Shown piece by piece: positions 23,328 through 59,175 of a stretch of DNA of 64,000 nt. The position numbers and the translations under genes are program-made. Below the pieces are notes generated by a model, which was not told the origin of the DNA, did not search any database, and worked only from the letters and a program-made list of their open reading frames with translations. Every line of letters starts with the position of its first letter. The stretch's first letter is position 1. The DNA is from Candidatus Magasanikiibacteriota bacterium (GTDB taxonomy: Bacteria; Patescibacteriota; Patescibacteriia; Magasanikbacterales; UBA922). The DNA lies in the NCBI GenBank assembly GCA_049287025.1, contig JBAQFA010000051.1:1697-65696 (forward strand), given 5' to 3'.

Positions 23328-23384
23328 GTTTGAATATAAAACTGTGGATAATATAGGTTTCACATAGAATTTTTATAATTTTTG

Positions 23385-23393
23385 TGGTATAAT
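23385..23393 (+). promoter_or_regulatory. extended -10 element TGgTATAAT upstream of the giant gene
   Basis: TGGTATAAT 30 nt before the ATG at 23423. Confidence 0.5.
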
Positions 23394-23422
23394 TCCTTCA
23401 AGGATTAAACAATTCGTTTTTT

Positions 23423-29400: not shown

Positions 29401-32400
29401 TTTGAATACTTTTACTACTGGCACAGTAGATTTGGCTGGTGGAGCGATTGCCGGTTTGACTGCGCGTTATGAGAATGGTACAACTACAGTCCAGGGTACA
29501 TATTTTAAAAATTTGGATTCGGGTAATTATAATATAATATATTTCACAACCCATGATGTTAATGTTTTTGAAACTCAAACTGTGGTGGCTGATTTAGATG
29601 GGTATACTTTTACCGGAGGATTTGCAGTCGATGTAGATGGTAATGCTGGTTTAACTTACGCTGATTACAGTGATTCAAATTATAAGTTCCTTTATTACAA
29701 CAATGGTACCTGGGTTACTAGTACTTTAACTAAAAGTAATAATAAATTTTCCGAATTAGCTTTTTATAATAATCAACCATATTTTGCTTATGGTGCTGAT
29801 GATACTAGTAGTGGGTTGATAAATTTTGCTTATAGCACTAGTACTAATACGCCCTATGATTTTATTGTTAGTACTAATATTGATAATGGGAATATTATTA
29901 GTGATGGTCGTGTTTCTTCAGCTTACAATAATGCCAGCAACATTGTGGCGGTCGCTTATGTTGATGGCAACGGTGAACCAAGGTTTGTAACTAGTAGTTT
30001 GGATTTGAGTGTGAGTGAATCATATGTTAGTTCTTCTCCAGTTTTATCTAACTTAATAGTCACCTCAACTGTAGATGGCACGGGTGAAGTAACTGTTAAT
30101 TTTACTTTGAATGATGCTAATCAAGATAATGTGACGGTTTCTATTTGGTATGAGGAATGTTCCAGTGGTTGTACTTTTAATGATGATGGTGGTGTTACTG
30201 AATTTGGTGCTATGATCAATACTACCACAGTTGAATCTTTGTACGGAGTTATTTCTCCTGATTATGATCCACTTAATACGCCAGATAAAGCCGAACAACT
30301 CCCGCTGATTACAACTGCTTCTGGAGCTAATGTTGTTACTTCTACTTGGCTTTCTTTATTAGATTTACCCACTGGTAATGGTACTTACCGGATATATTTA
30401 TCAGCCTATGATCATAATGGAGACTTTTCAACAGAAATTGCTGAAGTTGTTTCTACGACTGTTTTGATTGATAATGTTGAGCCAACTGCCCCAGGTGATT
30501 TATCAGTAAATATTACCAATAGCAGTACTGTAATTTTAAATTTGCCGAGCACCACTTCCACCGATGATAACTTTTTTGATTACACTATACGTTATGCCAC
30601 TTCTTCACCATTGAATGGCGGTAGCCCTGAATGGAGGTCAGCTGATGACCCAAATTTAGCTGACAGTAATTTTAATGGTGCCACCACAACCGTTATTACC
30701 GGTTTGTCAGTCAGTACCACCTATTATTTCCAATTGTTTGCTTGGGATAGCTATGGTAATAGTACTTCCTCAGTTGAGATTAGTACAACAACTTTGGCAG
30801 AAGAACCAGTTTATACCGCACCAGTCTTTGAAGGCACAGACTATTCTTTTGCTACTGATGGTACTGGCTTAGTTACACTTATCGGCACAGTTACAGATGC
30901 AGATGATGATTCTGTTACGCTCTTTGTTGATTATTCTTTGGATGATGGTTCTACTTGGGCGTCTTCTACTATTAGCACGACTACTGTTGGTACTATATCA
31001 ACCACAGGTACAATTAGCGGTATTACTAATACTTCTGCTAGAAGGTCTATGACCATTAAATGGAATACCCAAGCTGATGGGGTAATTACTACTACCATTG
31101 CTCAATTACGTTTGACACCATTTGATGGAACTGGTTATGGTTCGTCAGACACTACTCCAGAATTTGAGGTTGATAATGTTGCACCAGATGCTTCTTCCTT
31201 ATTTTTTGTAAGCACAGATAGCACTTCAATTACCCTTGGTTGGGAGGCAGCGGCTGGTGCTACTACTTATACTGTTTCCACTACTGCTGACACAGCTACA
31301 ACTACCTCAAACACTTCCACTCCGTATATTGGTTTAACTCCTAATACTCAATATTATTTTCAAGTAAAAGCCATAGATGTGTATGGCAATGTTGGTAGTT
31401 ATACTACTGTTAGTAGTACATATACTAATTCAAATATTCCAGCTACTGTTGTTGGCACTGCCAACGGCCAAACTAGTATGATTGTTTCTTGGAATAATAA
31501 TGAAAACCCAACTGGTACAGTTTATAAATTAGCTTATGACGATGACATAGTTATTGCTACCACTACTGCCGTTACTTACACCGTTATTGGTCTCACTGCT
31601 GACACAGGTTATTCATTTAAAGTGTCTGCTTTGAATAATGATAGTACTTATACTGATTATTCTGCAGTGTCAGACGAGGTTAATACTGATCCGGTTGGCT
31701 CGCCGGTAGAGATGACTTTAAATACAAATACTTCTTCTACTTTTAAATTATCAGTTTCTGGAGACAATCACACGGTTACCCTTAATTCAGTAGTAGAAGG
31801 TGTTTCTGCAAATCTAACCATTGCTTCTGACCCAGTGACGCAATCATATAATTTAAATCAAGCGACCAACGTTGCTTCTATTGGTATGACTGTAACAGTT
31901 ACTGCTGTTGGTTCAAATTACGCTTCATTCTCTTTGGCTACTTACACCCCAACTACTAATAATTCTAGTGGCGGTGGTGGCGGTGACACGACTCCACCAA
32001 CCAATGGTTCAATGATGGTCAACAACAATGCTACTTCTACCACAAATGTTAATGTTGTTCTAAATCTAGGTGCCTCTGGAGCCACTCTAGTGACGCTTTC
32101 TAATAGTACAGACTTTAGTAATTCTATCTGGGAAACATACAATACTAAAAAGAATTGGACTCTAACCTCTGGCGCTGGTACTAAGACAGTTTATGTTAAA
32201 TTTAGAGATAACGAGGGTAATACTACCAAAGTTTTTTCTGATTCAATTGAACTCTTGTCTAACTATATTGATACCATCATTACACCAACAGAAACAGATG
32301 ATGATATTACTGAAATAAAAAACACCCAATGTCCTCTCACTCCTGAACAAGCCTACAAATCAACTCAATCACCTTCAATCTACTACATAACCACCGACTG

Positions 32401-37893: not shown

Positions 37894-40800
37894 ATGTATC
37901 AAGCTAACAACGAAGAACAAAAAGTTCTAAAATATTGGGAAGAAAATAAGACTTTTGAGAAGTCTGTTTCAGAGCGTCCAGAAAATAAGCCATATGTTTT
38001 TTATGATGGCCCACCGTTTGCGACTGGCCTGCCTCACTATGGTCATATTTTAAGCTCGGTTATAAAAGATGTGGTACCAAGATATATGACTATGAAAGGT
38101 TATCGTGTCCGTCGTCGCTGGGGTTGGGATTGTCATGGTCTACCAATTGAAAACATTGTAGAAAAAGAATTAAAAGTCTCGGGTAAAAAAGATGTAGAAG
38201 AAAATTTGGGTGTAGACAAATTTAATGAGACTTGTCGATCAAAAGTTTTGACTTATACTCAAGATTGGAAAAAGATGATCAACCGGATTGGTCGGTGGGT
38301 GGAGTTTGATAATGCTTACAAAACCATGGACTCTACCTATATGGAGTCTGTTTGGTGGTCTCTAAAAACTATTTGGGAAAAGGGTTTGATTTATGAAGGT
38401 CGAAAAGTCCTCATGTATTGCCCTCGTTGTGAAACTCCAGTCTCTAAAGCCGAAATTGCTATGGATGATAGTTATAAGGATATTACTGAGGAAACAGTTG
38501 TTGCGAAATTTAAACTTAAAAATCCAGAAAAACATGGATTGCCAGATAACACATCTATACTCGCATGGACTACTACACCATGGACATTGCCAGGAAATGT
38601 GGCTCTTGCAATTGGTAAAGATATTGATTATGTTTTGGTTCATTATTTTGATTTAGGATTAGAAGCAAAAGAACAGAAGGGGTTTGAGAAATTAAAACCA
38701 AGTGTTTTTAGTTCCTATTGTTTAATTTTAGCCAAGGATAGAGTAAATGAAGTGTTAAAAGAACAACAATATGAATTGATAAAAGAGTTTAAGGGATCAA
38801 ATTTAATTGGGGCAGAATATGAACCACTATTTGATATCCCAGCGATTAATGAAACAGGGAAAAAAGCTTGGTATGTGACTGACGCTGATTTTGTTACGAC
38901 CGAAGAAGGTACTGGTGTAGTACATACGGCCGTTGTGTATGGTGAAGACGATTATAATCTTGGTTTACAAAGAGATTTGCCAGTTGTACCACTCTTGGAT
39001 GACAAAGGACATTTTAATGAATTTGCTCCAGAATTTATAAAAGGTAAATATTTTAAAGGGGCAGAAAAAGAAATTAAAGCTGATTTAGAAACTCGGGGTT
39101 TATTATTTAGTCGAGAACAACATACTCACTCTTATCCACATTGTTGGCGGTGTGATACTCAGCTTTTTTACAATGCTATTTCCGCCTGGTTTATTGATAT
39201 TCAAAAGATTAAAGATAAATTAATTAAATTGAATGAAAAAATTAATTGGTTTCCAGACCATTTGAAGCATGGACGTTTCTTAAATATTTTGGAAACAGCC
39301 CCGGATTGGAATATTTCTCGCAATCGTTTTTGGGCGACACCTTTACCTTTTTGGAAATGTGATAATAAAGAATGTGATAATCAAGTTTGTGTAGGTAGTG
39401 TGGATGAATTAAGAGAAAAAGGTGATCGAGAAATTACTAAGGTTATGTTTATGCGTCATGGTGAAGCTAATCATGAAATAGAAATGGTCAAATCCAGTGA
39501 CGTTAATAAGCACTCATTGACTGAAATTGGTAAAGAACAAATTAAAACTTGTGCCAAAAATATAAAAGACAAAGTGGATATTATAATTAGTTCGCCAGTT
39601 TTGCGTTGTCGAGAAACCGCTGAAATTTTGAGTAAAGAATTAAAGGTTGATATTGTAATTGATGATTTGATTACTGAATATAATCATGGTGGATGGAGTG
39701 AAATAAAACGAGATGAATTAGAAAAAATGGCTAGTTTTATAGAATATAAGAAAATAACTTCTTTAGAAGAAAAATTTAATTATCATTTAGGTGAAAATGG
39801 TGAATCAAGAAAGGAAATTACTGACAGAGTGGATAAATTTCTTAAAAATATTAACAAAAAATATTCTGGTAAGACTGTTTTAATTGTAAGTCATGGTGGT
39901 GTAAATGCTTCCATGAGTAAAATTTTGTCAGATGTTAATTACGAACAATATTTTTTGGAAGAAGACATTAGTCATGAGGCGCCAAAATATTTTTATATTG
40001 ATAATAATAACAAAGGTCTCGATCTTCACAAACATAATGTAGACAAAATCAAACTAAAATGTGACAAGTGTGGCGGCACAATGACAAGAATCCCAGAAGT
40101 GATTGATTGTTGGGTAGAGTCAGCTAGCATGCCATTTGCGGAGTGGCATTATCCATTTGAAAATGTAGAAACATTCAAAAAACGTTTTCCTGGTCAATAC
40201 ATTGCCGAATATATTGCTCAGACCCGAGCATGGTTTTATTACATGCATGTTATGGCAGTATTATTATTTGATGATGTGAGTTTTGAAAATGTGGTTTGTA
40301 CTGGGACGATTCTGAATGACAAAGGCGAGAAATTATCAAAATCAAAAATGAATTATACTGATCCGTGGAAAATCATTGATGAGTTCGGGGTAGATGCTCT
40401 GCGTTATTATCTTATGACTTCGGTTGTAATGCAAGCCGAAAATTTGTATTTCAATGATCGAGAAGTACGCGATGTTTATAACAAGGTCATGAATATTTTG
40501 GATAATGTGTTGTCGTTTTATGGTATGTATCACACGGAGGGCACGGAATTAAAGGATTACACGGATTCAGAAAATGTGTTGGACAAATGGATATTAGCTA
40601 AATTGAATGTATTAGTGGGTGAAGTGACAGAACACATGGACAAATATGATACAGTGCGAGCGGGCAGACCAATTAAAGATTTTATTGATGAACTTTCTAC
40701 TTGGTATTTACGTCGTTCTCGTGATCGTTTCAAAGATGAAAATGAAACTGATAAACAATTTGCTTTAGCCACTTTGCGTCAAGTTCTAGAAACTTTGTCC

Positions 40801-41451
40801 AAGCTTATGGCACCATTTACGCCATTTATTGCGGAGAAAGTTTGGTATACCGTGACTGGTAGTAAAGAGAGTGTACACTTACAGGAGTGGCCAGTGGTTG
40901 ATGAAAAAATGATTGATAAAAAGGTCTTAGGAGATATGGAGTTAGTGAGGAAGATCGTTGAATTAGCATTAGCTCTAAGGGCAGAAACAGGTCTTAAAGT
41001 TAGACAACCTATTAATAATTTGGAAGTTGCTTCAACTGTACTTGGTTCTGATTTTGGTTTGCAATTAAAGATGATGGTTTTGAGTGAAGTTAATGTAAAT
41101 ACCAATATACTAAGCTTGACAAACAAAGTTACACAAAGAGAAGGATATGTTTATAAAGAGAGCGGAGGGCTAAGTGTTGGGATTGATACAAATATAACTC
41201 CTGAACTCAAAAAGCTGGGTTTACTTCGTGAAGTTGTTCGAACGATCAACCAAATCCGTAAAGAACAAAAAATGACAATTGAAGACAGGGTGGTAGTAGA
41301 ATATAGTACAGATGATCAATTGTTGAATAGTGTATTTGTGGATTTTGCTGAAGAATTGAAAAAGTCAGTTTTGGCAACAGAGCTGAAAGTTGGGGAAACT
41401 GGTGTAGAAGTAGAAATTGATGGAAAGAAAATAAAACTAAAAGTATCTTAA
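37894..41451 (+). CDS. ileS: isoleucine--tRNA ligase, type 2 (eukaryote/Thermus-like), with an inserted ~200-aa histidine-phosphatase (PGAM-like) domain
   Basis: HIGH region PPFATGLPHYGHIL (type-2 IleRS signature). KMSKS as KLSKSK. C-terminal block LDLHKHNVDKIKLKCDKCGGTMTRIPEVIDCWVESASMPFA matches the T. thermophilus-type IleRS. An RHGE...SSPVLRCRETA...SHGG domain is inserted at 39411-40011. Confidence 0.92.
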   Translation: MYQANNEEQKVLKYWEENKTFEKSVSERPENKPYVFYDGPPFATGLPHYGHILSSVIKDVVPRYMTMKGYRVRRRWGWDCHGLPIENIVEKELKVSGKKDVEENLGVDKFNETCRSKVLTYTQDWKKMINRIGRWVEFDNAYKTMDSTYMESVWWSLKTIWEKGLIYEGRKVLMYCPRCETPVSKAEIAMDDSYKDITEETVVAKFKLKNPEKHGLPDNTSILAWTTTPWTLPGNVALAIGKDIDYVLVHYFDLGLEAKEQKGFEKLKPSVFSSYCLILAKDRVNEVLKEQQYELIKEFKGSNLIGAEYEPLFDIPAINETGKKAWYVTDADFVTTEEGTGVVHTAVVYGEDDYNLGLQRDLPVVPLLDDKGHFNEFAPEFIKGKYFKGAEKEIKADLETRGLLFSREQHTHSYPHCWRCDTQLFYNAISAWFIDIQKIKDKLIKLNEKINWFPDHLKHGRFLNILETAPDWNISRNRFWATPLPFWKCDNKECDNQVCVGSVDELREKGDREITKVMFMRHGEANHEIEMVKSSDVNKHSLTEIGKEQIKTCAKNIKDKVDIIISSPVLRCRETAEILSKELKVDIVIDDLITEYNHGGWSEIKRDELEKMASFIEYKKITSLEEKFNYHLGENGESRKEITDRVDKFLKNINKKYSGKTVLIVSHGGVNASMSKILSDVNYEQYFLEEDISHEAPKYFYIDNNNKGLDLHKHNVDKIKLKCDKCGGTMTRIPEVIDCWVESASMPFAEWHYPFENVETFKKRFPGQYIAEYIAQTRAWFYYMHVMAVLLFDDVSFENVVCTGTILNDKGEKLSKSKMNYTDPWKIIDEFGVDALRYYLMTSVVMQAENLYFNDREVRDVYNKVMNILDNVLSFYGMYHTEGTELKDYTDSENVLDKWILAKLNVLVGEVTEHMDKYDTVRAGRPIKDFIDELSTWYLRRSRDRFKDENETDKQFALATLRQVLETLSKLMAPFTPFIAEKVWYTVTGSKESVHLQEWPVVDEKMIDKKVLGDMELVRKIVELALALRAETGLKVRQPINNLEVASTVLGSDFGLQLKMMVLSEVNVNTNILSLTNKVTQREGYVYKESGGLSVGIDTNITPELKKLGLLREVVRTINQIRKEQKMTIEDRVVVEYSTDDQLLNSVFVDFAEELKKSVLATELKVGETGVEVEIDGKKIKLKVS
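39411..40011 (+). other. in-frame histidine phosphatase superfamily (branch 1, PGAM-like) domain inserted in the ileS linker loop
   Basis: Motifs MRHGEANHE (catalytic His), LTEIGKEQI, SSPVLRCRETAEIL, LIVSHGGV (second His). Flanked on both sides by bona fide IleRS sequence in the same frame. Confidence 0.8.
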
Positions 41452-42479: not shown

Positions 42480-43235
42480 CTAAGTAAGCGAATGTTTTTA
42501 TATTTTGGCAACGCGCCAGGCTTCATTAAACAATTTTTGTTTACTCAAGTCTTGTGGCGCGTTGTCGGTACGTGCCACCAAGACCCTGCTCAGAAAAGAC
42601 ATGGGTCTTGGCGCCCATTAGCCTAACACCTGTACAGGTGTTAAGGAACGGGAAAGGAGTACCCCGACACGGAAAAGAACTACCAAGTTGACCTATTTAT
42701 ATTCCGCTTGGTCTAGCGGGTTAGGGGTTTAAGAAAATCCCAGTTGCCAAGTATTCTTGGCTGGTCTACTGGACGTCTATGGCCCAGTATCGGATGTCGT
42801 CCCTGATTTCTCTCAGGAGCGTTTGGCGGTCCTCGTGGCTGAGGACGACCCAATGATCTTCCTCTGTCTCTTCCAGAGACGTGAGGTTGTGGTAGCCCCT
42901 TTCCAGGCGGTAGGTAACCGCTCCTTGTTCGGGCGAACCACAATCGTGATCCCAGCGGTCGGTTTTTACTTCGATCTCCACGAAGTAATCACCTCTGTCT
43001 TCGTCGAAGACAAACTTGATTTTAGTGAGAAATTCCCACCGCTTCAAGTCGTAGACCAATTCGACGATTTGATCCAGGGACAGTTCGCAAATAGCACACC
43101 GTTCAGCGTTACGATACAGCATCCTGTCCTCCTTGGCACTTATGTGCCTTTTGGGGTGCACCCCAGCCCCTTGGCAAGGGTGTCCGAGATTTCTCCCGGT
43201 GTAATTTGGCTTAATTAAGGCAAAATTACATCGAT
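42480..43235. other. GC-rich island (much higher GC than flanks): structured non-coding segment plus small endonuclease-like ORF, bounded by a 20-bp perfect palindrome
   Basis: Compositional jump visible by eye. 42480-42765 contains nested perfect hairpins (CAACGCGCCA...TGGCGCGTTG, TAAACAAtttTTGTTTA, CCAAGACCC...GGGTCTTGG, AACACCTGTACAGGTGTT, GCCAAGtattCTTGGC). Palindrome TTTGGCTTAATTAAGGCAAA at 43205-43224. Confidence 0.7.
42766..43122 (-). CDS. small PD-(D/E)xK endonuclease-like protein (Vsr/DUF559-like), 119 aa from the SD-preceded ATG
   Basis: Perfect AGGAGG Shine-Dalgarno 5 nt upstream of the ATG at 43122. Motif GDYFVEIEVK (D...ExK) and RLERGYHNLTSL resemble the DUF559/Vsr core (hxVEhDG..H...D..R...L...GY.V.R). 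High-GC codon usage unlike neighbours. Confidence 0.55.
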   Translation of the reverse strand: MLYRNAERCAICELSLDQIVELVYDLKRWEFLTKIKFVFDEDRGDYFVEIEVKTDRWDHDCGSPEQGAVTYRLERGYHNLTSLEETEEDHWVVLSHEDRQTLLREIRDDIRYWAIDVQ

Positions 43236-43379
43236 AGAAATATCTTTTTTGGTACGATTTTAACAAAACAGTATAGCATATTTTAAAGGTTTTGTCAAGA
43301 TTATCTTATCTTTTGTGTGTAGTTTGACTTTTGTGGTTTTTTTAACTAAAATAAGACAATAACTATTAATTGTTTTAAT

Positions 43380-46351: not shown

Positions 46352-47738
<1,387 letters not shown>

Positions 47739-47794
47739 ACAATAATTTTACGTAAATTTTACGGAAATTGGACAGAAATTTTTTAGAATTCAGA

Positions 47795-47880
47795 TAACAA
47801 ATAGCAGATAACAAATTAATTAATTTGTTCACTTGCTATCTGTTATCTGTTTTTTGTTATCTGTCTATTTTTGTTAATTT
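47795..47880. repeat. iteron-like array of the 8-mer CAGATAAC/GTTATCTG (5 copies, forming a long imperfect palindrome)
   Basis: cAGATAACaaatagCAGATAACaaattaattaatttgttcacttgctatctGTTATCTGttttttGTTATCTGtc. Confidence 0.6.
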
Positions 47881-47922
47881 CAGATAAAATGGCTTGTCTT
47901 AGCTAAAATATCCTATTTGACA

Positions 47923-47951
47923 TTGACAAAGGTCTATCTTTGTGATATACT
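47923..47951 (+). promoter_or_regulatory. consensus sigma70 promoter TTGACA-N17-TATACT upstream of the high-GC lipoprotein gene
   Basis: Perfect -35 (duplicated TTGACAttgaca) and near-perfect -10 with 17-nt spacer. Confidence 0.65.
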
Positions 47952-48081
47952 TGTCTGTTTAGTAAGATAGGATTGCTGTATTTATTAAACAAAATCTGTT
48001 ATAAATCGCTTAATTTAGCTAAATTTTGGCCAAATGAAGCGGTTATATAACAATGTCGGCAAATCCGACTGAAAGGGAATC

Positions 48082-48459
48082 ATGAACCGCATGGTGGTTG
48101 TTGTGATCCTCGTTCTGCAGAGTCTGGCGACGGGTTGTATGGCCACGAGTGGTCATCAGTTCGATCGCGAGGTCGCCTGGGACAAATACCAGGCGGAGCA
48201 GAAGAAGGCTCAGGCCGAGGCTAAGGCCAAGGCCGACATCGATGGGGATAACATCCCCGACGCCAAGGACAACTGCCCGTTCGTGAAAACCTACGGGCAG
48301 GATCAGCGTGACTTCGACGCTGATGGCGTGGGCGACGCCTGCGACAACTGCCCGGAGAAGTCGAACGCCGATCAGGCGAACAACGACGCTGACAAGCTCG
48401 GCGACGCCTGCGACCCGTTCCCGCAATGCAACCCACAGTTCTACAACTGCGGGAGGTAG
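48082..48459 (+). CDS. lipoprotein with thrombospondin type-3 (TSP3) Ca-binding repeats, encoded in a high-GC foreign-looking island
   Basis: Signal peptide plus lipobox LATGC. Repeats [41 protein letters not shown] of the TSP3 type seen in OmpA-like proteins of high-GC Proteobacteria. GC-rich codon usage foreign to the rest of the window. Several overlapping alternative-frame ORFs are high-GC artefacts. Confidence 0.75.
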
Positions 48460-48550
48460 CGTGGGGCTACGGACGAGGCGGGTGGATAGGTTCCAAAAGC
48501 AAGGCCAAGCGCTTTGCCAATGGACGATCCACTCGCCTCGAGACTATGAC

Positions 48551-48607
48551 GAGATTTGTTTAAGATGGGGAAACAAATCTCGGCTTCAATTACTTTATTC
48601 TTTTTTT
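48551..48607 (+). terminator. hairpin GAGATTTGTTT-aagatgggg-AAACAAATCTC then T-run 15 nt later (weak intrinsic terminator)
   Basis: 11-bp perfect stem. T-run not immediately adjacent. Confidence 0.4.
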
Positions 48608-48688
48608 AAAAAAAGGATAAAGTTGAGAAGAAAAAATTAACTATTTAAAAACTCGCTTGGTTGGCGAGTTTTTATTTATGTAAGTTTT

Positions 48689-49237
48689 TTAAATATTTTT
48701 TGTATCAAATATTTTTTCAAAATTTGGTCTGTGTATTATAAGTAGTATGACTGAAGGTATAGCAAAGTATAAAAACATTTTTATGTCATAACCACTAAAT
48801 CCTAAAACCAATCCAAAAATTACGATTGCTTCGCACATAGCAATACTTAATAAAAATGGTACGAGATAGGCAGATAATAATTTGAATTTTTGTAATTCAT
48901 TGATATCTAGGCTTTTTATTTTTTCTACATCATAACCATGTTCTGGTGATAGTGAATCAATCACACTACCCGCATCAATATATTTTTCTTTTACTTTACT
49001 GGTTGTTTGATTTAGCATAGTTTTTGGTAAGATAAAAGATGCTATAGCAAAAATTATTGCAAGGACAGCGAGGGTTATTGGTAGATTGGTGTCTGGAATA
49101 TTAGTAATGGTTCTTTCAGAAGACACAGTATATAGTACATAAAAATAAATAATTGGCGCAATCATAAAAGCTGTCCATAAAAGATAAAAGAGTTTTTTGG
49201 TTGGCTTAGTTAGTTCTTCAAATTGGGGTGAGGGCAT
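48689..49237 (-). CDS. hypothetical membrane protein (182 aa, ~4 TM)
   Basis: Hydrophobic ORF, no family recognised. Confidence 0.5.
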   Translation of the reverse strand: MPSPQFEELTKPTKKLFYLLWTAFMIAPIIYFYVLYTVSSERTITNIPDTNLPITLAVLAIIFAIASFILPKTMLNQTTSKVKEKYIDAGSVIDSLSPEHGYDVEKIKSLDINELQKFKLLSAYLVPFLLSIAMCEAIVIFGLVLGFSGYDIKMFLYFAIPSVILLIIHRPNFEKIFDTKNI

Positions 49238-49262
49238 ATTGTCTAAAAATTAAGATTAAATT

Positions 49263-49523
49263 TTATATAATAGCGGTAATGGCCGTGGTAATACCCAAAA
49301 TTATTCCTGGTATGTTGGCAATAATAATCGGCCAGTCGCGTTTGATTTTTAAAATACCATACAATGTCCAAGCTGTACAATTTATAGTCGTTATAATTGG
49401 TAGGACAATTGACCCTGGTTGGCCAGAAATGTTTAGTCTGATTTGGTCAATGTAAGAAAAATACATCGCGACCGCCATAAAGGAGGCAAACCAACCTATT
49501 TTGTCCACGATTTTTTCGTTCAT
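49263..49523 (-). CDS. SemiSWEET sugar transporter (PQ-loop, 3 TM)
   Basis: 86 aa, three TM helices. Strong resemblance to bacterial SemiSWEETs (WTLYGILKIKRDWPIIIANIPGIILG vs the canonical ...WFVYGIL....PIILAN... block). Confidence 0.75.
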   Translation of the reverse strand: MNEKIVDKIGWFASFMAVAMYFSYIDQIRLNISGQPGSIVLPIITTINCTAWTLYGILKIKRDWPIIIANIPGIILGITTAITAII

Positions 49524-49649
49524 ATTTTTTATGTTATCCTGAGTCCTGATGTTGATTGGGATAAACTTTGTTGAAGGATCACTTTTATTAATGCATTAAA
49601 GTAAGGGATTCTTCGCTACGCTCAGAATGACAGTATTATACCTAAAAAT

Positions 49650-49678
49650 CAACATTGAAACAAACTAATATTTTTGGT
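49650..49678 (+). promoter_or_regulatory. sigma70-like promoter TTGAAA-N17-TATAAT for gpmI-1
   Basis: ttgaaacaaactaatatttttggtataat, 15 nt upstream of the ATG. Confidence 0.55.
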
Positions 49679-49692
49679 ATAATGTCTTTACT

Positions 49693-51276
49693 ATGCTAAA
49701 AAAAGCCAAAACTCAGAAAAAACCAATAGTTTTAGCCATTTTGGATGGTTTTGCTTTGGCGAGTCAAAAAAATAAAGGCAATGCTATTACTCCTGAGACC
49801 GCTCCGCATATTTTTTCTTATCTCAAAAAATATTCCAATTCCACTCTCAAAACTTTTGGAGAAAATGTTGGTTTGTTTCCTGAACAACAGGGTAATTCTG
49901 AAGCTGGGCATATTAATATTGGCGCGGGCAGAATTGTAAAACAAGATTTGGTTGTGATTTCCGAAGCGATTCATGATGGCACTTTTTTCAAAAATGAAGC
50001 TTTCAAACAAGCGATTCACCATATCAAAAAATACAATACCTCGGCTCATGTGATGGGATTATTGACTGATGGTAATAGCGCCCATGCATATCCTGAACAT
50101 TTTTATGCCATGTTAGAATTATTCCGTCGAGAAGGCATAGACAAAGTTTATTTGCATTTGTTTACTGATGGCCGAGATTCGTCTCCGCATGGATCGGCTC
50201 ATTTTCTCAAGGAGTTGCGTACTCATATGTTGGGTAAAGAAAAGATTGCCACTATCATGGGTCGGTTTTATGCTATGGATAGAAACAAGATTTGGGAGAG
50301 AACACAAAAAGCTTATGAAGCCATGGTTTTGGGCAAGGGTTGTGTCGCTCCGAGTGCCGAAGAAGCTTTGTCACAATCATACAATCGAGGTGATACTGAT
50401 GAATATATTTGTCCTTCTGTCATTGTAGAAAACCCTTCGATAGGATCAGGACCAGCTAAACCAACTGGTCTGATAAAAGATAATGATGCTATTTTTTTTG
50501 TTAATGCTAGAAGTGATCGAGCGCGTCAGATTACCAAAGCTTTTGTACAATCAGATTTTAATAAAATGAATCCTGGTTCTTTCAAAAGAACCAAACAACC
50601 AAAAAATACTCGCTTTGTCGCTATGACAGATTTTGGTCCAGATTTGCCAGATATTTTTACGGCTTTTCCTAGCCCAGATATTGCCAATTGTTTGCCTTTG
50701 GTAATAGATGGCAATTATAAACAATTGTATATTTCTGAAACCGAAAAATATGCGCACGTCACTTACTTTATCAATGGCGGTTTTGCTGACCCCCTCAATG
50801 GCGAAGAGCGAGAATTAATAAAATCTCCGCCAATTCGTTCTTATGCGGATAAGCCTGAGATGAATACCAAATTAATGGTAGAAAAAATTGTAAAATATTT
50901 AAACACGGGCAAATATAATTTTATTTGTGTTAATTTTCCTAATACTGATATGGTGGGTCATACGGGAGATTTAGTGGCTGCACAAAAAGCCGTGACAATT
51001 GTTGATAATGCTGTAGCAAAAATTGTAGAAATAATTTTGAAATTAGATGGGCAAATGTTAATTACGGCTGATCATGGCAATGCTGATGAAATGGTAAATG
51101 AAAAAACTGGAGAGATTATGACTGAGCACACCAAAAATCCTGTGCCATTTATTTTAGTCAAAAAAGGTAAAAAAATAAAAATGAAAAATGGTATTTTGGC
51201 TGATGTCGCGCCCACCCTTTTGAAAATGATGGAAATAAAACAGCCGGAAGAAATGACAGGCAAACCTTTGGTTTGA
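49693..51276 (+). CDS. gpmI: 2,3-bisphosphoglycerate-independent phosphoglycerate mutase, copy 1
   Basis: 527 aa. VLAILDGFAL N-terminus, GNSEAGH (catalytic Ser), ADHGNA C-terminal block. Confidence 0.92.
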   Translation: MLKKAKTQKKPIVLAILDGFALASQKNKGNAITPETAPHIFSYLKKYSNSTLKTFGENVGLFPEQQGNSEAGHINIGAGRIVKQDLVVISEAIHDGTFFKNEAFKQAIHHIKKYNTSAHVMGLLTDGNSAHAYPEHFYAMLELFRREGIDKVYLHLFTDGRDSSPHGSAHFLKELRTHMLGKEKIATIMGRFYAMDRNKIWERTQKAYEAMVLGKGCVAPSAEEALSQSYNRGDTDEYICPSVIVENPSIGSGPAKPTGLIKDNDAIFFVNARSDRARQITKAFVQSDFNKMNPGSFKRTKQPKNTRFVAMTDFGPDLPDIFTAFPSPDIANCLPLVIDGNYKQLYISETEKYAHVTYFINGGFADPLNGEERELIKSPPIRSYADKPEMNTKLMVEKIVKYLNTGKYNFICVNFPNTDMVGHTGDLVAAQKAVTIVDNAVAKIVEIILKLDGQMLITADHGNADEMVNEKTGEIMTEHTKNPVPFILVKKGKKIKMKNGILADVAPTLLKMMEIKQPEEMTGKPLV

Positions 51277-51323
51277 AATTAATCTAATTATTCTAATTGA
51301 CCTAATTAACCTAAAAAATTATC

Positions 51324-51346
51324 AATGTCTAATTTAGAATAATTAG
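51324..51346 (+). repeat. intergenic repeat family copy C (internally deleted derivative: AATGTCTAAT-T-TAGAATAATTAG)
   Basis: Retains both ends of copies A/B and lacks the central ~40 nt. Embedded in an AATTAG-rich spacer (51279-51375). Confidence 0.65.
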
Positions 51347-51411
51347 TATAATTAGGTTAATTAGAAATTTGAGAAATTATTATAGTAAAAAGACATATCA
51401 TAAAATAAATT

Positions 51412-52986
51412 ATGAAAAACAAACCAGTTGTTTTGGCTATCCTCGACGGTTGGGGCGTGGCGCCCGATGGAGAAGGGAATGCCATTACTCAGGCTAAACT
51501 ACCAAATTTTAATAAATTTGTTCGTGAATATCCAGTCATGACTCTGCATGCTTCGGGCAATGAGGTTGGTCTTATGTTTGGTCAAATGGGAAATTCTGAA
51601 GTCGGACATCTAAACATTGGTGCCGGCCGAGTTTATTATCAATCATTACCACGAATTACTCATCATGTTAATGATGGGAGTTTTTTTGCCAATAAAGCTT
51701 TTGTAAGAGCGGCTGAACAAGTGAAAAAAAATGACTCTGCTCTGCATATTATCGGCCTAATTAGTCCGGGCAATGTCCATTCTAGCCAAGATCATTGTTT
51801 TGCTTTGCTTGATTTTGCCAAAAGACAGAAAATAAAAAATGTGTATATTCATGTAATTCTAGATGGTCGAGATTGTATATATAATTCGGGAATTGATTTT
51901 GTCAAAGAATTACAAAAGAAAATAAAAGAATATCATCGCGGAGAAATTGCTTCTATTTCTGGTCGTTTTTTTGCTATGGATAGAGACAACCGTTGGGATC
52001 GGACCGAAAAAGCTTACAATGCGATGGCCATGGGGGTGGCAGAAAAATATTTTAAAGATCCAATTGATGCAATTGAAGAATCATATAAACGAGAAGTTTA
52101 TGATGAAGAATTTGTCCCAGTGGTAATTGGTAAAGAAGGTAAACCAACCGCGACTATAAAAAATGGTGATGCTTGTATATTTTTTAATTTTCGTCCGGAT
52201 CGAGCGCGACAATTAACCAAAGCCTTTGTCTTGCCTGGGTTTAATAAATTTACCAGAGAATATATTAAGGATTTATGTTTTGTGACTATGACAGAATATG
52301 AAAAAGAATTACCCATTGTCGTGGCTTATGGCCCACAGGTAGTACACAATTCTTTGGCCGAGACAATTAGTAAAGCAGGATTAAAACAATTTCATGTGGC
52401 TGAGACTACTAAGTATGCACATATTACATATTTTCTCAATGGTACAGTGGAAGACCCGTTTCCTTGTGAAGAAAGAAAAATTGTTCCCTCAGTTATGGTG
52501 TCATCTTATGATCAGGCACCAGAAATGTCTGCCGGAGAAATCACCAAGGAAGTAGTTAAGGCTATAGAATCAGGAAAGTACGATGCTGTTATGTTGAACT
52601 ATGCCAATGTTGATATGGTGGGGCATACTGGTAAAATGAAAGCTACAATTGAAGCGTGTGAAATGGTGGACAAATGTTTAGGAACAGTGGCCGAACATGT
52701 GTTGGCAAAAAATGGTGTCTTACTTATTACCGCTGATCATGGCAATGCCGAAGAAGTAAAAAATTTACAAACTGGAGCCATTGATAAAGAACATTCTACC
52801 AATCCAGTTCCTTTTATAATTATTAGTAATGAATTGCGTGGTCAAGCTGGACCAACTGGAGATCCACCTGAGGGTGATCTTAGTTTGATGCCACCGGTAG
52901 GGATGTTAGGTGATGTTGCTCCAACCATGCTTTCAATTATGGGAGTAGAAGTGCCAAAGGAGATGACAGGACGGAGTTTGATTTGA
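51412..52986 (+). CDS. gpmI: 2,3-bisphosphoglycerate-independent phosphoglycerate mutase, copy 2 (divergent tandem paralog)
   Basis: 524 aa. VVLAILDGWGVAPDG, GNSEVGH, ADHGNAEE. Same domain order as copy 1 but clearly diverged. Confidence 0.9.
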   Translation: MKNKPVVLAILDGWGVAPDGEGNAITQAKLPNFNKFVREYPVMTLHASGNEVGLMFGQMGNSEVGHLNIGAGRVYYQSLPRITHHVNDGSFFANKAFVRAAEQVKKNDSALHIIGLISPGNVHSSQDHCFALLDFAKRQKIKNVYIHVILDGRDCIYNSGIDFVKELQKKIKEYHRGEIASISGRFFAMDRDNRWDRTEKAYNAMAMGVAEKYFKDPIDAIEESYKREVYDEEFVPVVIGKEGKPTATIKNGDACIFFNFRPDRARQLTKAFVLPGFNKFTREYIKDLCFVTMTEYEKELPIVVAYGPQVVHNSLAETISKAGLKQFHVAETTKYAHITYFLNGTVEDPFPCEERKIVPSVMVSSYDQAPEMSAGEITKEVVKAIESGKYDAVMLNYANVDMVGHTGKMKATIEACEMVDKCLGTVAEHVLAKNGVLLITADHGNAEEVKNLQTGAIDKEHSTNPVPFIIISNELRGQAGPTGDPPEGDLSLMPPVGMLGDVAPTMLSIMGVEVPKEMTGRSLI

Positions 52987-54976: not shown

Positions 54977-57640
54977 ATGGATAAAGCTTACGAATCACAA
55001 AAATACGAAGATGAGATTTACAAACGCTGGGAAGAAAGTGGATTTTTTGATCCTGATGTTTGTATTGAGAAAGGTGTAACAAGCAAAGACGCGAAACCTT
55101 TTACAATTGTTTTACCTCCACCTAACGCAACTGGGTCACTTCATGTTGGTCATGCGATGATGTTGGCTTTAGAGGATTTAATGATACGTTATCATAGGAT
55201 GAAAGGAGAGAAAACTTTGTGGATACCAGGTACTGATCATGCTGCGATCGCGACCAATGCTATTGTAGAAAAACAATTAGCCAAAGAAGGTAAGACAAAA
55301 AATGATTTGGGTAGAGAAAAATATGTTGAGAGAGTAAAAGATTATATAAAGAATTCACAAGATAATATTCGTAATCAAGTTCGTAAAATGGGTTCTAGTT
55401 TGGACTGGAATAGAGAAGCTTATACTTGGGATGAGGAAAGAAATTTGGCTGTTAGAACCATGTTTAAAAAAATGTATGATGATGGTTTGATATATCGGGG
55501 TTTGAGAATTGTAAATTGGTGCCCACATTGCCATTCAACTTTGGCTGATGATGAAGTAATTTATAAAGAGCAAACAACTAAATTTTATTATTTTAAGTTT
55601 GGTCCAGTAATAATTGGTACGGCTCGGCCCGAAACTAAATTTTTGGATAAAACTATTATTGTCCATCCAGATGATGAGAAATATAAAAAAATACAGGGTA
55701 AAGAATTTGATATGGAGTGGATTGGTGGAAAAATAAAGTGTAATGTTATTGCTGACCCAGCATCTGATCCCGAGTTTGGTACAGGGGCGATGACTATTAC
55801 TCCAGCACATAGTTTTGAAGATTATGCTTTGGCACAAAAATATAATTTGCCAGTGGTCCAAATTATTGATGAGGATGGTAATTTTACTGAAGCTGCAGGC
55901 GAATTTGCTGGTAAAAATGCTTATGCTAGTCGTGAAGAAATTGTTAAAATTTTAGCGAACAAAGGTTTAGTAGATCATATCGATGAAAATTATGTTCATA
56001 ATCTTTCAATTTGTTACCGTTGTAAAAATCCAGTTGAACCATTACCGTCTAAACAATGGTTTGTGGATGTAAACAAAGAATTTAATTTTAATCAGTCAAA
56101 AAATCACCCGATTGTAGGATTAAAAGATAAACAGTTAGTGACTTTGAAAAAATTGATGCAACAAGTGGTGAATAATAAGCAAATTGAAATAATACCAGAA
56201 AGATTTAATGCTACATATTTTCATTGGATAAATAATTTGCGTGATTGGTGTATTAGTCGTCAGATTTGGGTAGGTCATCAAATACCAGTATGGTATAAAA
56301 AGGGGTCAAATGAAATTTTTGTTGATATTGAACCACCAAAAGATATTGACAATTGGGAACGTGATCCAGATAATTTAGATACTTGGTTTAGTGCTGGACT
56401 TTGGACTTTTTCTACACTTGGCTGGCCCAATAAAGTAGATAAAGATTTGAAAATTTATCACCCTACGGCAGTGTTAGAAACTATGTTTGATATCCTATTT
56501 TTTTGGGTGGCCAGAATGATTATGATGTCTACTTACGCTTTAGGTGAAATTCCTTTTGAGAAAGTATATTTACATGCTCGAGTTTTGGATAAAGATGGAG
56601 AAAAAATGAGCAAATCTAAACCAGAGACTATGATTGATCCTTTGGATGTTTGTAAAAAATATGGTACGGATGCCGTTAGACTCTCTATGTTGTTGGGTGT
56701 TTCTCCAGGTGCAGATATTAAGATGTCAATTGAAAAAATTGAAGGTTTTAGAAATTTTTCTAATAAGTTGTGGAATATTGCTCGGTTTATCATGATGCAG
56801 ATAGCAGATAGCAAATGTCAGATGACAATAGACAAACCAACTCCAAAGACACTGGTGGATAAATGGATTTTATCTCGCCTGGCTTTTGTTGCAGAGCAAA
56901 TCACCACCAACATAGAACAATTTCAATTTTCCCAAGCAGGTGAAATGTTGCGTGATTTTACTTGGAATGAATTGGCTGACTGGTATTTAGAGATTGCCAA
57001 GATTGAGGGTGGCAAAAGTGAAATACTAAACTATATTTTAAATACGATTCTGAAATTGTGGCATCCTTTTATGCCTTTTGTAACCGAACAAATATGGACA
57101 GAAATATACGGTGAAGAAAAAATGCTTATGGTAGAAAAATGGCCAATTTGTCATTCTGAACTTGTTTCAGAATCTTTTGAAGGATTTGAATTGGTTAAAA
57201 ATATAATAACTGGCATTCGTTCTCTTCGTGCAGAAAATAAAATTGAACCAGTGAAAAAATTAAATGTTGTAATTTCTGCGGGCGATAAAGTTGAACTGCT
57301 CCAAGAAAATTCCGAGATTATTAAAGTTTTAGCTAGATTAGAAAATTTACAAATTCAAGAGACAACCACTAAACCAGTCGGTAGTATTGGTTTTGTTGAG
57401 AGTGGTGTAGAAGTTTTTGTAGATTTGTCCGGTGCCGTAGATATTGAAAAAGAAACAGCTAGACTAGAAAAAGAAAAACAAGAACTGGGAAAATATGTTA
57501 AAGGCCTAGAAGGAAAACTTGGTAACAAAGAATTTGTAAGTAATGCTCCGCCAACTGTAGTTGAAAAAGAACAACAAAAATTAAGTGAGGCAAAGGATAA
57601 ATTAGCCAAAATTGAGGGACAATTAAATAATTTAAAATAA
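54977..57640 (+). CDS. valS: valine--tRNA ligase
   Basis: 887 aa. HIGH as PPPNATGSLHVGHAM, KMSKS as KMSKSK, C-terminal coiled-coil typical of ValRS. Confidence 0.95.
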   Translation: MDKAYESQKYEDEIYKRWEESGFFDPDVCIEKGVTSKDAKPFTIVLPPPNATGSLHVGHAMMLALEDLMIRYHRMKGEKTLWIPGTDHAAIATNAIVEKQLAKEGKTKNDLGREKYVERVKDYIKNSQDNIRNQVRKMGSSLDWNREAYTWDEERNLAVRTMFKKMYDDGLIYRGLRIVNWCPHCHSTLADDEVIYKEQTTKFYYFKFGPVIIGTARPETKFLDKTIIVHPDDEKYKKIQGKEFDMEWIGGKIKCNVIADPASDPEFGTGAMTITPAHSFEDYALAQKYNLPVVQIIDEDGNFTEAAGEFAGKNAYASREEIVKILANKGLVDHIDENYVHNLSICYRCKNPVEPLPSKQWFVDVNKEFNFNQSKNHPIVGLKDKQLVTLKKLMQQVVNNKQIEIIPERFNATYFHWINNLRDWCISRQIWVGHQIPVWYKKGSNEIFVDIEPPKDIDNWERDPDNLDTWFSAGLWTFSTLGWPNKVDKDLKIYHPTAVLETMFDILFFWVARMIMMSTYALGEIPFEKVYLHARVLDKDGEKMSKSKPETMIDPLDVCKKYGTDAVRLSMLLGVSPGADIKMSIEKIEGFRNFSNKLWNIARFIMMQIADSKCQMTIDKPTPKTLVDKWILSRLAFVAEQITTNIEQFQFSQAGEMLRDFTWNELADWYLEIAKIEGGKSEILNYILNTILKLWHPFMPFVTEQIWTEIYGEEKMLMVEKWPICHSELVSESFEGFELVKNIITGIRSLRAENKIEPVKKLNVVISAGDKVELLQENSEIIKVLARLENLQIQETTTKPVGSIGFVESGVEVFVDLSGAVDIEKETARLEKEKQELGKYVKGLEGKLGNKEFVSNAPPTVVEKEQQKLSEAKDKLAKIEGQLNNLK

Positions 57641-58734: not shown

Positions 58735-59175
58735 ATGTCAAAAAATATTTTATTAGTTGGAATTTTATTTATTAGTTTGTTTTTGGGTGGTTGTGTTTTA
58801 AATAACAGTGGTGAAAAATTTGTTTTAACGACTGAACCACAGGATGCAGTGTTTTATATTGCTTATGGCTGGGTGGGTGGTGGCGGAGGCAGTATGCCAG
58901 TTTTGGATAATCAACGTAATCCTTTGCAATATAATAATTTGCCAGTGGCTTTTGACGAAACACAGGTTGATTTAGTTGGTAATAAGTTGCCAAGCTGTTA
59001 TGAGGGCAAGCCCGAAATTAAAGTATCAGCCAAAATTCAGTTAGAGAAAAGCAGTTCAATTAATACCTCTATTCCTCCTGACGAAAATGGTAATCAACCA
59101 GAAGAATCATTTTATTCGGCCAAAGTTTTGGAATTGAAAAATATTGAGGTGAAGGCCGTGGAGTGTAAAGATTAA
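58735..59175 (+). CDS. hypothetical lipoprotein
   Basis: Signal peptide with lipobox FLGGC. Confidence 0.55.
   Translation: MSKNILLVGILFISLFLGGCVLNNSGEKFVLTTEPQDAVFYIAYGWVGGGGGSMPVLDNQRNPLQYNNLPVAFDETQVDLVGNKLPSCYEGKPEIKVSAKIQLEKSSSINTSIPPDENGNQPEESFYSAKVLELKNIEVKAVECKD

Follow-up and report, generated by a model that had tools for sequence, protein, structure and literature searches.

A short high-GC islet with a TSP3-repeat lipoprotein gene downstream of enolase in Candidatus Magasanikbacteria: a probable recent horizontal acquisition

The DxDxDGxxDxxDxCP calcium-binding motifs of thrombospondin type-3 (TSP3) repeats are known from the signature domains of COMP and the thrombospondins (3fby, 1yo8, 1ux6), and the same motif occurs three times in the protein considered here. 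The TSP3 module is also common to OmpA-family proteins (Capnocytophaga gingivalis OmpA, 5wtl, E 8e-5) and to Myxococcus MtsC and TraB (NCBIfam 59 and 18 bits, respectively), with which a functional analogy may be drawn in envelope-associated calcium binding and cell–cell cohesion. The same size and architecture are found in small bacterial TSP3-only lipoproteins (P0028 of 125 aa, P0002, P0007, P0031, and P0034) from high-GC metagenomic or MAG contigs, where a signal peptide with a lipobox Cys is followed by three to six TSP3 repeats. As to the genetic setting, small genomic islets at the junctions of conserved genes resemble the present locus in their atypical composition, their absence from relatives, and a junction occupied by differing cargo.

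The window, i.e., the whole 64,000-nucleotide stretch of DNA that was analysed, belongs to Candidatus Magasanikbacteria, its enolase being 77–83% identical to Magasanikbacteria enolases. A high-GC island within it is most reasonably explained as the product of a recent horizontal transfer, still un-ameliorated, into a low-GC CPR genome from an unrelated high-GC bacterium, with a probability of about 0.8 for this explanation as a whole. An earlier sequence-only reading had listed the features of this island, and every one of them was found, with small corrections (Table 1).

Composition and insertion site of the island

In the 64 kb, only two regions, the island and 42499–43237, yield 400-bp windows above 50% GC. 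The maximum-likelihood segment of a change-point analysis (GC 0.60 against 0.30 in the flanks, log-likelihood ratio 68) is about 490 bp long in a genome of 34% GC, and its edges fall within 48050–48088 on the left and 48536–48570 on the right. The foreign codon usage claimed by the sequence-only reading is fully supported, since the TSP3 ORF (GC 0.603) has a GC3 of 0.810 compared with 0.253 ± 0.052, and at most 0.384, in the 38–39 other genes of the window. The codon adaptation comparison suggested there gave an index, built on host genes, of 0.297 against 0.682 ± 0.052 (z = −7.4), a mismatch that would make translation inefficient. Given the GC3 of 0.81, amelioration is nil. Shine–Dalgarno-like (SD-like) motifs precede both island ORFs of the window and few of the about 34 host gene starts examined. 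Thus, the segment has the marks of a genomic islet gained by horizontal transfer: its composition and codon usage are atypical, and relatives lack it at the syntenic site (54 syntenic loci). It is proposed that a complete gene would have arrived on the high-GC piece together with a donor-type ribosome-binding site and a GC-rich 3′ hairpin.

Table 1. Coordinates of the features in and around the high-GC island
Feature	Coordinates	Strand	Remarks
Tandem repeat	47744–47782	+	3.5 copies of the 11-bp unit AATTTTACGGA, directly after the enolase stop; AT-rich, host-type; from TRF and the repeat family
Heptamer/octamer palindrome	47791–47863	+	CAGATAAC twice forward, then CAGATAGC once and CAGATAAC twice on the reverse strand
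Putative promoter, sigma-70-type	47923–47951	+	TTGACA-17-TATACT with TG extension; 11/12 matches; AT-rich DNA; predicted function
Predicted 5′ UTR	47958–48081	+	about 124 nt; hairpins 47958–47990, 47997–48052, and 48055–48069; fold z −4.3
Foreign segment	48055–48544	.	GC 0.60; holds ribosome-binding site, complete ORF, and GC-rich 3′ hairpin; from change-point analysis and composition profiles
TSP3-repeat lipoprotein gene (125 aa)	48082–48459	+	intact ORF; signal peptide aa 1–18; lipobox Cys19 at 48136–48138; predicted helix aa 29–50; repeats aa 52–112 (48235–48417); Cys-containing tail
GC-rich hairpin	48474–48540	+	14-bp outer stem, −41 kcal/mol; inside the foreign segment; without U-tract
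AT-rich hairpin	48550–48582	+	12-bp perfect stem, 9-nt loop; z only −2.8 when folded alone
T7A7-centred palindrome	48592–48623	.	both Logan contigs break here
Terminator-like hairpin	48646–48674	.	12-bp stem flanked by A- and T-runs

The genes are conserved in the order enolase, iPGM1, iPGM2, and the island is located between enolase and the first of the two iPGM genes. This gap spans at most 300 bp in 33 of the 54 related loci, while in 20 it holds 0.65–4.9 kb of varied cargo, including a reverse transcriptase with a DGR-like cassette and a TrmB regulator (both identified with Pfam), as well as ORFs that, by reading, resemble HicAB, AbiE, and GIY-YIG proteins. The TSP3 gene is absent from all 54 loci. 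As judged from these gene orders, the gap downstream of enolase is a variable insertion site in Magasanikbacteria.

Signs of a mobility machinery or of att or target-site repeats were absent from the islet: the genes between 33 and 60 kb include no integrase or transposase, and no target-site duplications or flanking repeats were found to bound the island, a search for direct and inverted repeats giving only 8–9-bp matches at chance level. The duplication of the enolase 3′ end that is seen in the related loci L019 and L084 is not significant in the window (score 21 against 19.8 ± 2.5 for shuffles). A tRNA/tmRNA scan found none, and the AT-rich flanks (47864–48054 and 48545–48700) resemble neither the remainder of the window nor any of 160 related loci. 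A search for the exact enolase protein, meant to reveal an empty-site allele, found it on record with neither start codon. A second contig, of 20–50 kb, carries the downstream genes. Interpretation of the palindromes as integron attC sites was rejected because their core sites, by inspection, are unlike GTTRRRY/RYYYAAC and an integrase is absent.

The predicted lipoprotein and its homologues

The claim that the ORF encodes TSP3 repeats behind a lipobox signal peptide is well founded. Three repeats are recognised by Pfam PF02412 (E 1.1e-12), the 47.8 bits lying well above the cutoff of 25, so that TSP3-family similarity, whose absence would have spoken against the sequence-only reading, is present, and the repeated Asp-rich motif DxDxDGxxDxxDxC places the protein among the TSP3 repeat proteins above the gathering threshold. 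The D, G, and C columns are conserved in an alignment of the protein with 31 homologues. In a phmmer search against PDB, COMP (3fby, E 1.6e-35) and TSP-2 (1yo8, E 3.6e-28) were matched. The AlphaFold2 model has a pLDDT of 83.7, exceeding 90 over residues 30–110, and its best Foldseek matches are the type-3 repeats of COMP and thrombospondins (3fby, 2rhp, and 1yo8; probability 1.0, E 3e-4 to 3e-3), which indicates a similar fold. The TM-scores of these matches are low (0.26–0.41), as would be consistent with an extended repeat. At the N-terminus, the lipobox L15-A-T-G-C19, R3, and the hydrophobic core satisfy the PROSITE PS51257-type rule ([LVI][ASTVI][GAS]C).

The protein would therefore appear to combine a Sec/SPII signal peptide, a lipidated Cys19, an alpha-helical spacer, and a “wire” of three TSP type-3 calcium-binding repeats, and it may be anchored on the outer side of the cell membrane. 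Calcium binding is predicted from motif conservation alone; lipidation is likewise predicted, as is a surface role such as adhesion or envelope stabilisation. The repeats had also been described as a hallmark of OmpA-like outer-membrane proteins, which does not hold here: both an OmpA domain (Pfam, E up to 1) and a beta-barrel are absent, the 125 aa are fully explained by the signal peptide, helix, and repeats, outside OmpA-like membership, and the best homologues are small TSP3-only proteins. Nor does a lipoprotein seem notable in a monoderm CPR cell, as had been supposed. It would be unremarkable in this cell because the window has its own low-GC gene of host composition (58735–59175) for a protein with the canonical lipobox FLGG-C; SPII-type signal peptides have also been reported in Saccharibacteria, another CPR lineage (PMC7427843). 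Among the genes of the window that were examined, neither lgt nor lspA was identified.

The best homologues are TSP3 proteins of 125–219 aa, several of them with lipoboxes, encoded on contigs of 56–68% GC by genes of 58–69% GC that match their own genomes. The named ones are few and labelled as Deltaproteobacteria or Myxococcota. Their identity to the protein is 41–58% in the repeats only, the N-terminal helix (aa 20–51) being unmatched, and in the protein homologue search no donor sequence exceeded about 55% identity, again in the repeat region only. In the protein collection, Logan is the sole source of the TSP3 protein itself, the NCBI record seemingly being without it. A literature search gave nothing relevant on TSP3 in CPR or on horizontal transfer in Magasanikbacteria. 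PADLOC gave no match, nor did a comparison of the protein with viral contigs, and the island, compared with plasmids and phages by blastn, gave a single irrelevant 102-bp match. A weak PHROGs match to an Rz-like spanin over the signal peptide and helix (E 0.004) was judged to be non-specific. The high similarity to COMP had raised the question of a eukaryotic origin, which was rejected because the lipobox is bacterial, an SD-like motif is present, and prokaryotic homologues share the identical architecture. An antisense ORF at 48043–48426 was also dismissed in view of the GC3 periodicity and the Pfam match in the + frame.

Signals for expression of the gene

The putative promoter belongs to a set of just four TG-extended sites in the 64 kb that match at 11 or more of 12 positions, all of them intergenic and correctly oriented. 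Since it is set in DNA of 28–30% GC, about 104 bp outside the compositional boundary, it is regarded as host-type DNA that was not carried in with the gene. Thus, the sequence-only reading was correct in recognising the consensus hexamers but not in calling the promoter the gene's own. Transcription would most likely proceed from this near-consensus host-type promoter, 130 nt upstream of the gene, with a start predicted near 47958, and an SD-like AAGGGA is found at 48073–48078.

Downstream of the gene, an 11-bp hairpin had been noticed; it is indeed present (48550–48582), but its stem has 12 bp and it is one of four consecutive hairpins. The GC-rich hairpin is probably a donor-derived 3′ structure, and transcription of the TSP3 gene is proposed to end at the AT-rich hairpins. 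The last of the hairpins (Table 1) could act in both directions, serving the TSP3 gene and the convergent gene of a 182-aa membrane protein.

Alternative explanations and relation to known systems

The palindrome that precedes the promoter contains four exact CAGATAAC/GTTATCTG copies and one CAGATAGC variant (26-nt arms, TRF period 7), and CAGATARC has 10 matches in the window against 2.4 expected. The five copies and their palindromic arrangement were thus correctly described, while their reading as an iteron-like or regulator-binding array of the TSP3 gene is improbable, be it as an operator for a regulator of the TSP3 promoter or as an iteron or recombination site linked to the acquisition. 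Such a role would fit the presence of five copies in 73 bp, 60–130 bp upstream of the −35 element, a clustering well above chance. In 1.7 Mb of related loci, clusters occur at the enolase 3′ end only, which may point to a sequence-specific role, and this end is an insertion target in L019 and L084. However, a (CAGATAR)n array directly follows the enolase stop also in L019 and L085, both without island and cargo, and in all three genomes a hairpin with a U-run, the architecture of a terminator, is formed by the array or after it. In the window, a hairpin at 47791–47849 (−24.4 kcal/mol, z −7.1) with U6 at 47850–47855 is situated 52 nt past the enolase stop, i.e., a stable hairpin and then a U-tract just 3′ of a gene. 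Iterons are several direct repeats of 17–22 bp beside a rep gene and an AT-rich unwinding element, whereas the repeats here are 7–8 bp long, inverted, and of period 7 or 14. The neighbouring genes that were examined include none for Rep, an integrase, or a regulator, and the cumulative GC skew rises steadily with no sign of an origin. Rfam (whole window at the gathering threshold; 47600–48800 at E up to 1) gave only spurious miRNA-type matches on the palindrome. The element at 47791–47855 is likely the intrinsic terminator of enolase, conserved in the clade and located outside the foreign island; the enolase terminator would thus be built from the heptamer array, and the palindrome would not belong to the TSP3 unit.

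Two further alternatives concern the island itself. The sequence-only reading had left the choice between an acquisition and a chimeric join; the former fits the homologues on contigs of 56–68% GC, the relatives without the gene, and the reproduction of the join by Logan contigs. That the assembler erroneously joined DNA of a co-occurring high-GC organism into the CPR contig is highly improbable, even though the compositional discontinuity is extreme, the TSP3 gene is seen in this lineage only, and the independent contigs break at 48604 and 48577, none crossing the whole right side. Contig SRR28062869_5996 equals window 47095–48604 and SRR28062879_11342 equals 48577–51361, both with 100% identity and with a 28-nt overlap at the T7A7 palindrome. 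The right link, from the island to the gene of the 182-aa membrane protein, is thus given by the window assembly and this overlap, no single independent contig spanning it. An assembly chimera is unlikely, since the left junction and the GC drop recur in independent contigs from two runs: the independent assembler recovered the complete island together with 945 bp of host DNA and some 60 bp past the GC drop. The contig breaks coincide with the palindrome, which is a normal break point of a de Bruijn graph. A chimera would require two false joins around a 490-bp insert, whereas both flanks belong to one syntenic CPR block (enolase, then the 182-aa membrane protein, iPGM1, and iPGM2), as in L087, the gene is correctly oriented between a host-type promoter and terminators, and a contig from a second run covers both junctions of the other island. 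A less remote, though still unlikely, possibility is that the TSP3 gene, though truly foreign, is a silent or neutral passenger, not usefully expressed and bound to decay. This would agree with the nil amelioration and very poor codon adaptation, with the restriction of the gene to this lineage, and with the miscellaneous cargo gathered at the site in relatives, but it is at odds with an intact ORF having a full signal peptide, linker, and repeats, like the same-size homologue P0028, with an upstream promoter equal to the host's best, and with the presence of an SD-like motif and downstream terminators.

The second high-GC islet of the window (42.5–43.3 kb) holds an orphan ORF. Each of the two un-ameliorated islets has a donor-type SD site and a near-identical host-type consensus promoter, the two promoters sharing no similarity beyond the hexamers. 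Both might be fresh captures from a high-GC organism carrying this epibiotic CPR cell, with the enolase 3′ end and its (CAGATAR)n array as a preferred capture site, but this is quite doubtful. If it were true, such islets could trace the hosts of Magasanikbacteria, and a host-derived surface calcium-binding adhesin might aid attachment.

Under the preferred explanation, recent acquisition from an unrelated high-GC bacterium, the case is a real yet fairly ordinary horizontal gene transfer, and a small TSP3 lipoprotein alone leaves the understanding of CPR biology unchanged. Its value lies in a clean, well-bounded, very recent inter-phylum transfer into a reduced CPR genome, in which the transferred unit is gene-sized and the donor translation signals are still visible, and in the variable insertion site that it reveals downstream of enolase in Magasanikbacteria. 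Should the donor be identified in the same samples, it might indicate the organism with which these cells associate.

Compared with typical islets, this one is without an integrase, tRNA, transposase, or flanking direct repeats and consists of a single gene in 490 bp. Unlike COMP and the thrombospondins, its product has three repeats only and is without the lectin-like C-terminal globe, EGF, and coiled-coil parts, and its gene encodes a bacterial lipoprotein signal peptide and is preceded by an SD-like motif. In contrast to OmpA, TraB, and MtsC, it bears no OmpA peptidoglycan-binding domain, beta-barrel, or MYXO-CTERM, and it is not a member of the MtsC and TraB families because its NCBIfam scores are far under their cutoffs of 350 and 700 bits. 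As for the small TSP3-only lipoproteins, their genes match the GC content of their own genomes, whereas the gene described here resides in a genome of 34% GC.

The foreign gene and its genuineness

A complete foreign gene for a thrombospondin type-3 repeat (TSP3) lipoprotein lies between host-type transcription signals downstream of enolase. GC content of the window is 34.3%, and in 400-bp windows it exceeds 50% at only two places of the 64 kb, 42499-43237 and the TSP3 region. A two-boundary likelihood fit delimits the latter as an island with a GC of 0.60 inside against 0.30 outside (log-likelihood ratio 68). The island holds a single intact ORF, whose GC3 of 0.81 and GC2 of 0.38 show the periodicity expected for a true coding frame of a high-GC genome, whereas GC3 averages 0.253 +/- 0.052 (maximum 0.384) over the window's 38 other genes. 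On a codon-adaptation index trained on host genes, the ORF scores 0.297 against 0.682 +/- 0.052 (z = -7.4), so the contrast with its neighbours described in the sequence-only reading is borne out quantitatively. A further foreign signature is the Shine-Dalgarno (SD)-like motifs preceding both island ORFs, AAGGGA for the TSP3 gene and AAGGAGG for the ORF of the other high-GC island (island 1); such motifs precede few of the approximately 34 host gene starts examined. In several host genes, a -10 box lies some 10 nt upstream of the ATG (in the phosphoglycerate mutase gene iPGM1, TATAAT ends at 49683 and the ATG is at 49693), which, together with the scarcity of SD-like motifs, suggests that this organism initiates translation independently of SD sites or on near-leaderless transcripts.

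That the island is an assembly chimera, the alternative raised earlier, is highly improbable, since it would take false joins on both sides of a 490-bp fragment within one syntenic block. Independent single-run assemblies (Logan contigs) from two runs match both sides of the island. Contig SRR28062869_5996 (1,510 nt) is 100% identical to 47095-48604: it contains 945 bp of host sequence, runs across the left junction and through the entire island, and extends some 60 bp beyond the drop in GC. SRR28062879_11342, from a different run, corresponds to 48577-51361. The two contigs share a 28-nt overlap, and each stops at the T7A7 palindrome, where a de Bruijn assembler would naturally break. A third contig, SRR28062879_39932, spans both junctions of island 1 with 100% identity.

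The orphan ORF of island 1 has a GC3 of about 0.60, a codon-adaptation z of -6.2, and a perfect SD site, and is followed by about 280 nt of GC-rich non-coding DNA. Its only match among 5.8 billion proteins is itself, the exactly matching NCBI hypothetical protein WAV48_05235, annotated as Candidatus Magasanikiibacteriota. The enolase adjoining the TSP3 island shares 77-83% identity with its counterparts in Candidatus Magasanikbacteria MAGs. Elsewhere in the window, an 11-kb block has a GC of 0.25-0.30 (GC3 0.17-0.27) against 0.35-0.40 outside it, and a class-I aminoacyl-tRNA synthetase (Pfam tRNA-synt_1, Anticodon_1, DUF5915), taken to be isoleucyl-type, contains a histidine-phosphatase domain as an insertion (His_Phos_1, aa 518-685, E 1.5e-29).

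Coordinates of features in the window and in related loci (L-numbers)
Locus	Feature	Position	Remark
Window	Low-GC block	12500-23400	11 kb
Window	ORF after low-GC block	23423-33151	3,242 aa
Window	Aminoacyl-tRNA synthetase	37894-41451	1,185 aa
Window	Island 1	42480-43300	
Window	Non-coding DNA, island 1	42480-42765	
Window	Island-1 ORF (minus strand)	42766-43122	118 aa
Window	Island-1 promoter	43298-43270	TTGACA-17-TATACT + TG
Window	Heptamer array with inverted copy	47791-47863	four exact CAGATAAC/GTTATCTG copies, one CAGATAGC variant
Window	Clade-conserved part of array	47791-47816	
Window	TSP3 promoter	47923-47951	TTGACA-17-TATACT + TG
Window	TSP3 island	48055-48544	left boundary in 48050-48088, right in 48536-48570
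Window	TSP3 ORF (plus strand)	48082-48459	125 aa
Window	GC-rich hairpin	48474-48540	inside island; -41 kcal/mol, no U-tract
Window	Hairpin of the sequence-only reading	48550-48582	12-bp stem
Window	T7A7 palindrome	48592-48623	third of four downstream hairpins
Window	Terminator-like hairpin	48646-48674	common to TSP3 and convergent membrane-protein gene
Window	Tandem iPGM genes	49693-52986	
Window	CAGATAR doublet	56798-56812	in coding region
Window	Low-GC lipobox gene	58735-59175	
L019	Array after enolase stop	1136-1150	CAGATAGCAGATAAC
L085	Array after enolase stop	7243-7271	CAGATAGCAGACAACAAATAACAGATAAC
L019	~110-bp element	969-1125	
L084	~110-bp element	7248-7405	
L086	DGR-like cassette (FLOH01000930.1)	5479-8094	gap cargo, reverse transcriptase; Pfam-supported
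L086	Recurring target-gene segment	6433-6654	
L086	Reverse transcriptase	7159-8094	RVT_1, E 4e-22
L087	Membrane ORF after enolase	7379-7765	128 aa
L087	TrmB regulator		gap cargo; Pfam-supported
L007	ORF after enolase	7342-8130	262 aa
L002	Second reverse transcriptase, related to that of L086		gap cargo; by reading only
L006	HicA/HicB-like genes		gap cargo; by reading only
L030	AbiE-like genes		gap cargo; by reading only
L116	GIY-YIG-like nuclease		gap cargo; by reading only

The enolase-iPGM gap as an insertion site

The order enolase, iPGM1, iPGM2 is kept across the related loci in which enolase and iPGM are both found. The enolase-iPGM gap is at most 300 bp in 33 of 54 loci and 0.65-4.9 kb in 20, and the larger gaps inspected contain unrelated cargo, two identities being supported by Pfam and the others coming from reading translated ORFs. 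In L087, the TrmB regulator has a GC-rich membrane ORF on one side and, on the other, a homologue of the window's 182-aa membrane protein. In the window, the gap measures 1,955 bp: the TSP3 island comes first, then two AT-rich opposite-strand genes, for the 182-aa membrane protein and for a semiSWEET. No TSP3 homologue was found in the related loci. The gap is an insertion hot spot that carries the TSP3 gene.

The cassette of L086 resembles a diversity-generating retroelement (DGR): the C-terminal segment of a GC-rich 254-aa target gene (GC3 0.70) recurs downstream with Asn-rich differences, resembling a VR/TR pair, and an AT-rich reverse transcriptase closes the cassette. Directly after the enolase stop, L019 and L084 share a conserved element without an Rfam match, with the ends TGGCYTGTCACGAGATGGCG ... 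AAAATGGCTAGCGCCATTTTT, flanked by a copy of the last ~40 nt of enolase (36/40 identical in L019); this duplication suggests that insertions in the clade specifically target the 3' end of enolase. GC-enriched ORFs directly follow enolase in L087 (GC3 0.65, genome 37% GC) and L007 (GC3 0.64, genome 48% GC), neither related to the TSP3 gene. Across Magasanikbacteria, enolase is followed by a conserved tandem pair of cofactor-independent mutase paralogues (~41% mutual identity), which is present in most related loci.

Transcription signals around the gene

The repeats noted earlier upstream of the gene are present as a tandem heptamer array with an inverted copy (TRF period 7), clustered where CAGATARC is expected 2.4 times in the whole window. 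The (CAGATAR)n array is conserved directly 3' of the enolase stop in three Magasanikbacteria lineages, including the two closest relatives free of cargo (L019 and L085), where a short hairpin and a U-run follow it, and in 1.7 Mb of related loci CAGATAR clusters occur only at this position; a doublet is found elsewhere in the window. In the window itself, this array is predicted to pair with its inverted copy, giving a hairpin of -24.4 kcal/mol (z -7.1) that is located 52 nt beyond the enolase stop and runs into UUUUUU. The palindrome is therefore best read as an enolase terminator derived from a clade-conserved 3' element. An operator or iteron of the TSP3 gene, as first proposed, is improbable, because the array with its inverted copy would form the hairpin before the U-run at the enolase end, and because the array occurs in relatives lacking the island.

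TG-extended promoter sites with 11/12 matches number only four in the window, all of them intergenic and pointing at a gene (the TSP3 gene, iPGM1, a DHH-family gene, and the island-1 ORF, whose hexamers equal those of the TSP3 promoter). Given this placing and its match quality, the TSP3 promoter rivals the best of the host and is probably used. The consensus promoter previously called the gene's own does exist, but it sits in DNA of 28-30% GC about 104 bp outside the island boundary, and thus is host-type sequence that was not imported along with the ORF. The leader, predicted to be 124 nt long, has hairpins (z -4.3) without a match in Rfam. Downstream of the stop codon come four hairpins in succession (combined z -10.1), among them the one already noted, with a stem of 12 bp rather than 11.

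Product, donor, and proposed function

In Pfam, the only notable match is to thrombospondin type-3 repeats (PF02412; 47.8 bits where the cutoff is 25; E 1.1e-12); an OmpA domain is absent, so the repeats do not mark an OmpA-like protein as had been supposed. Among solved structures, residues 52-112 match cartilage oligomeric matrix protein (COMP; 3fby, E 1.6e-35), thrombospondin-2 (1yo8, E 3.6e-28), and, with a weaker score, an OmpA-family protein of Capnocytophaga (5wtl, E 8e-5). An AlphaFold2 model resting on 31 homologues (mean pLDDT 83.7; >90 over residues 30-110) begins with a signal helix, has a second helix over residues 29-50, and shows the repeat region as non-regular; its top Foldseek matches are COMP and thrombospondin type-3 repeats (probability 1.0). 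The N-terminus satisfies a PROSITE-type lipobox rule with Cys19. Together these data uphold the predicted product as a small lipoprotein composed of a tether and three calcium-binding repeats.

Among 5.8 billion proteins, the sole identical one is encoded on a Logan contig from this organism; the next-best matches reach 41-58% identity over the repeats only, and several homologues share the lipobox-plus-repeats architecture and a similar size. Three retrieved homologue contigs have 56-68% GC, with which the gene GC agrees, and the few named homologues belong to Deltaproteobacteria or Myxococcota. Composition, SD motifs, GC of homologue contigs, and absence from relatives all speak for the recent arrival of a still un-ameliorated gene, out of a high-GC bacterium, at a variable site, which was one of the two origins first suggested. 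As for the mechanism of entry, no tRNA, integrase, transposase, or target duplication was found, nor any similarity to phages or plasmids.

A calcium-binding surface lipoprotein had been considered notable, if real, in a monoderm-like CPR cell; a lipoprotein is not unusual in this host, since the window encodes a low-GC gene with a canonical lipobox, and SPII-type signal peptides have been reported in Saccharibacteria (PMC7427843). The gene would be transcribed from the upstream promoter and translated from the SD-like site, and its product would be exported by Sec and lipidated at Cys19; a helical spacer would then hold it at the outside of the single membrane, where its three calcium-loaded repeats would be exposed. 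One may speculate about a role in adhesion or envelope stabilisation, because TSP3 modules occur in the OmpA family and in Myxococcus cohesion and exchange proteins. The NCBIfam matches to Myxococcus MtsC and TraB are sub-threshold and domain-level only, so that the likeness to these proteins is a functional analogy at best and not family membership.
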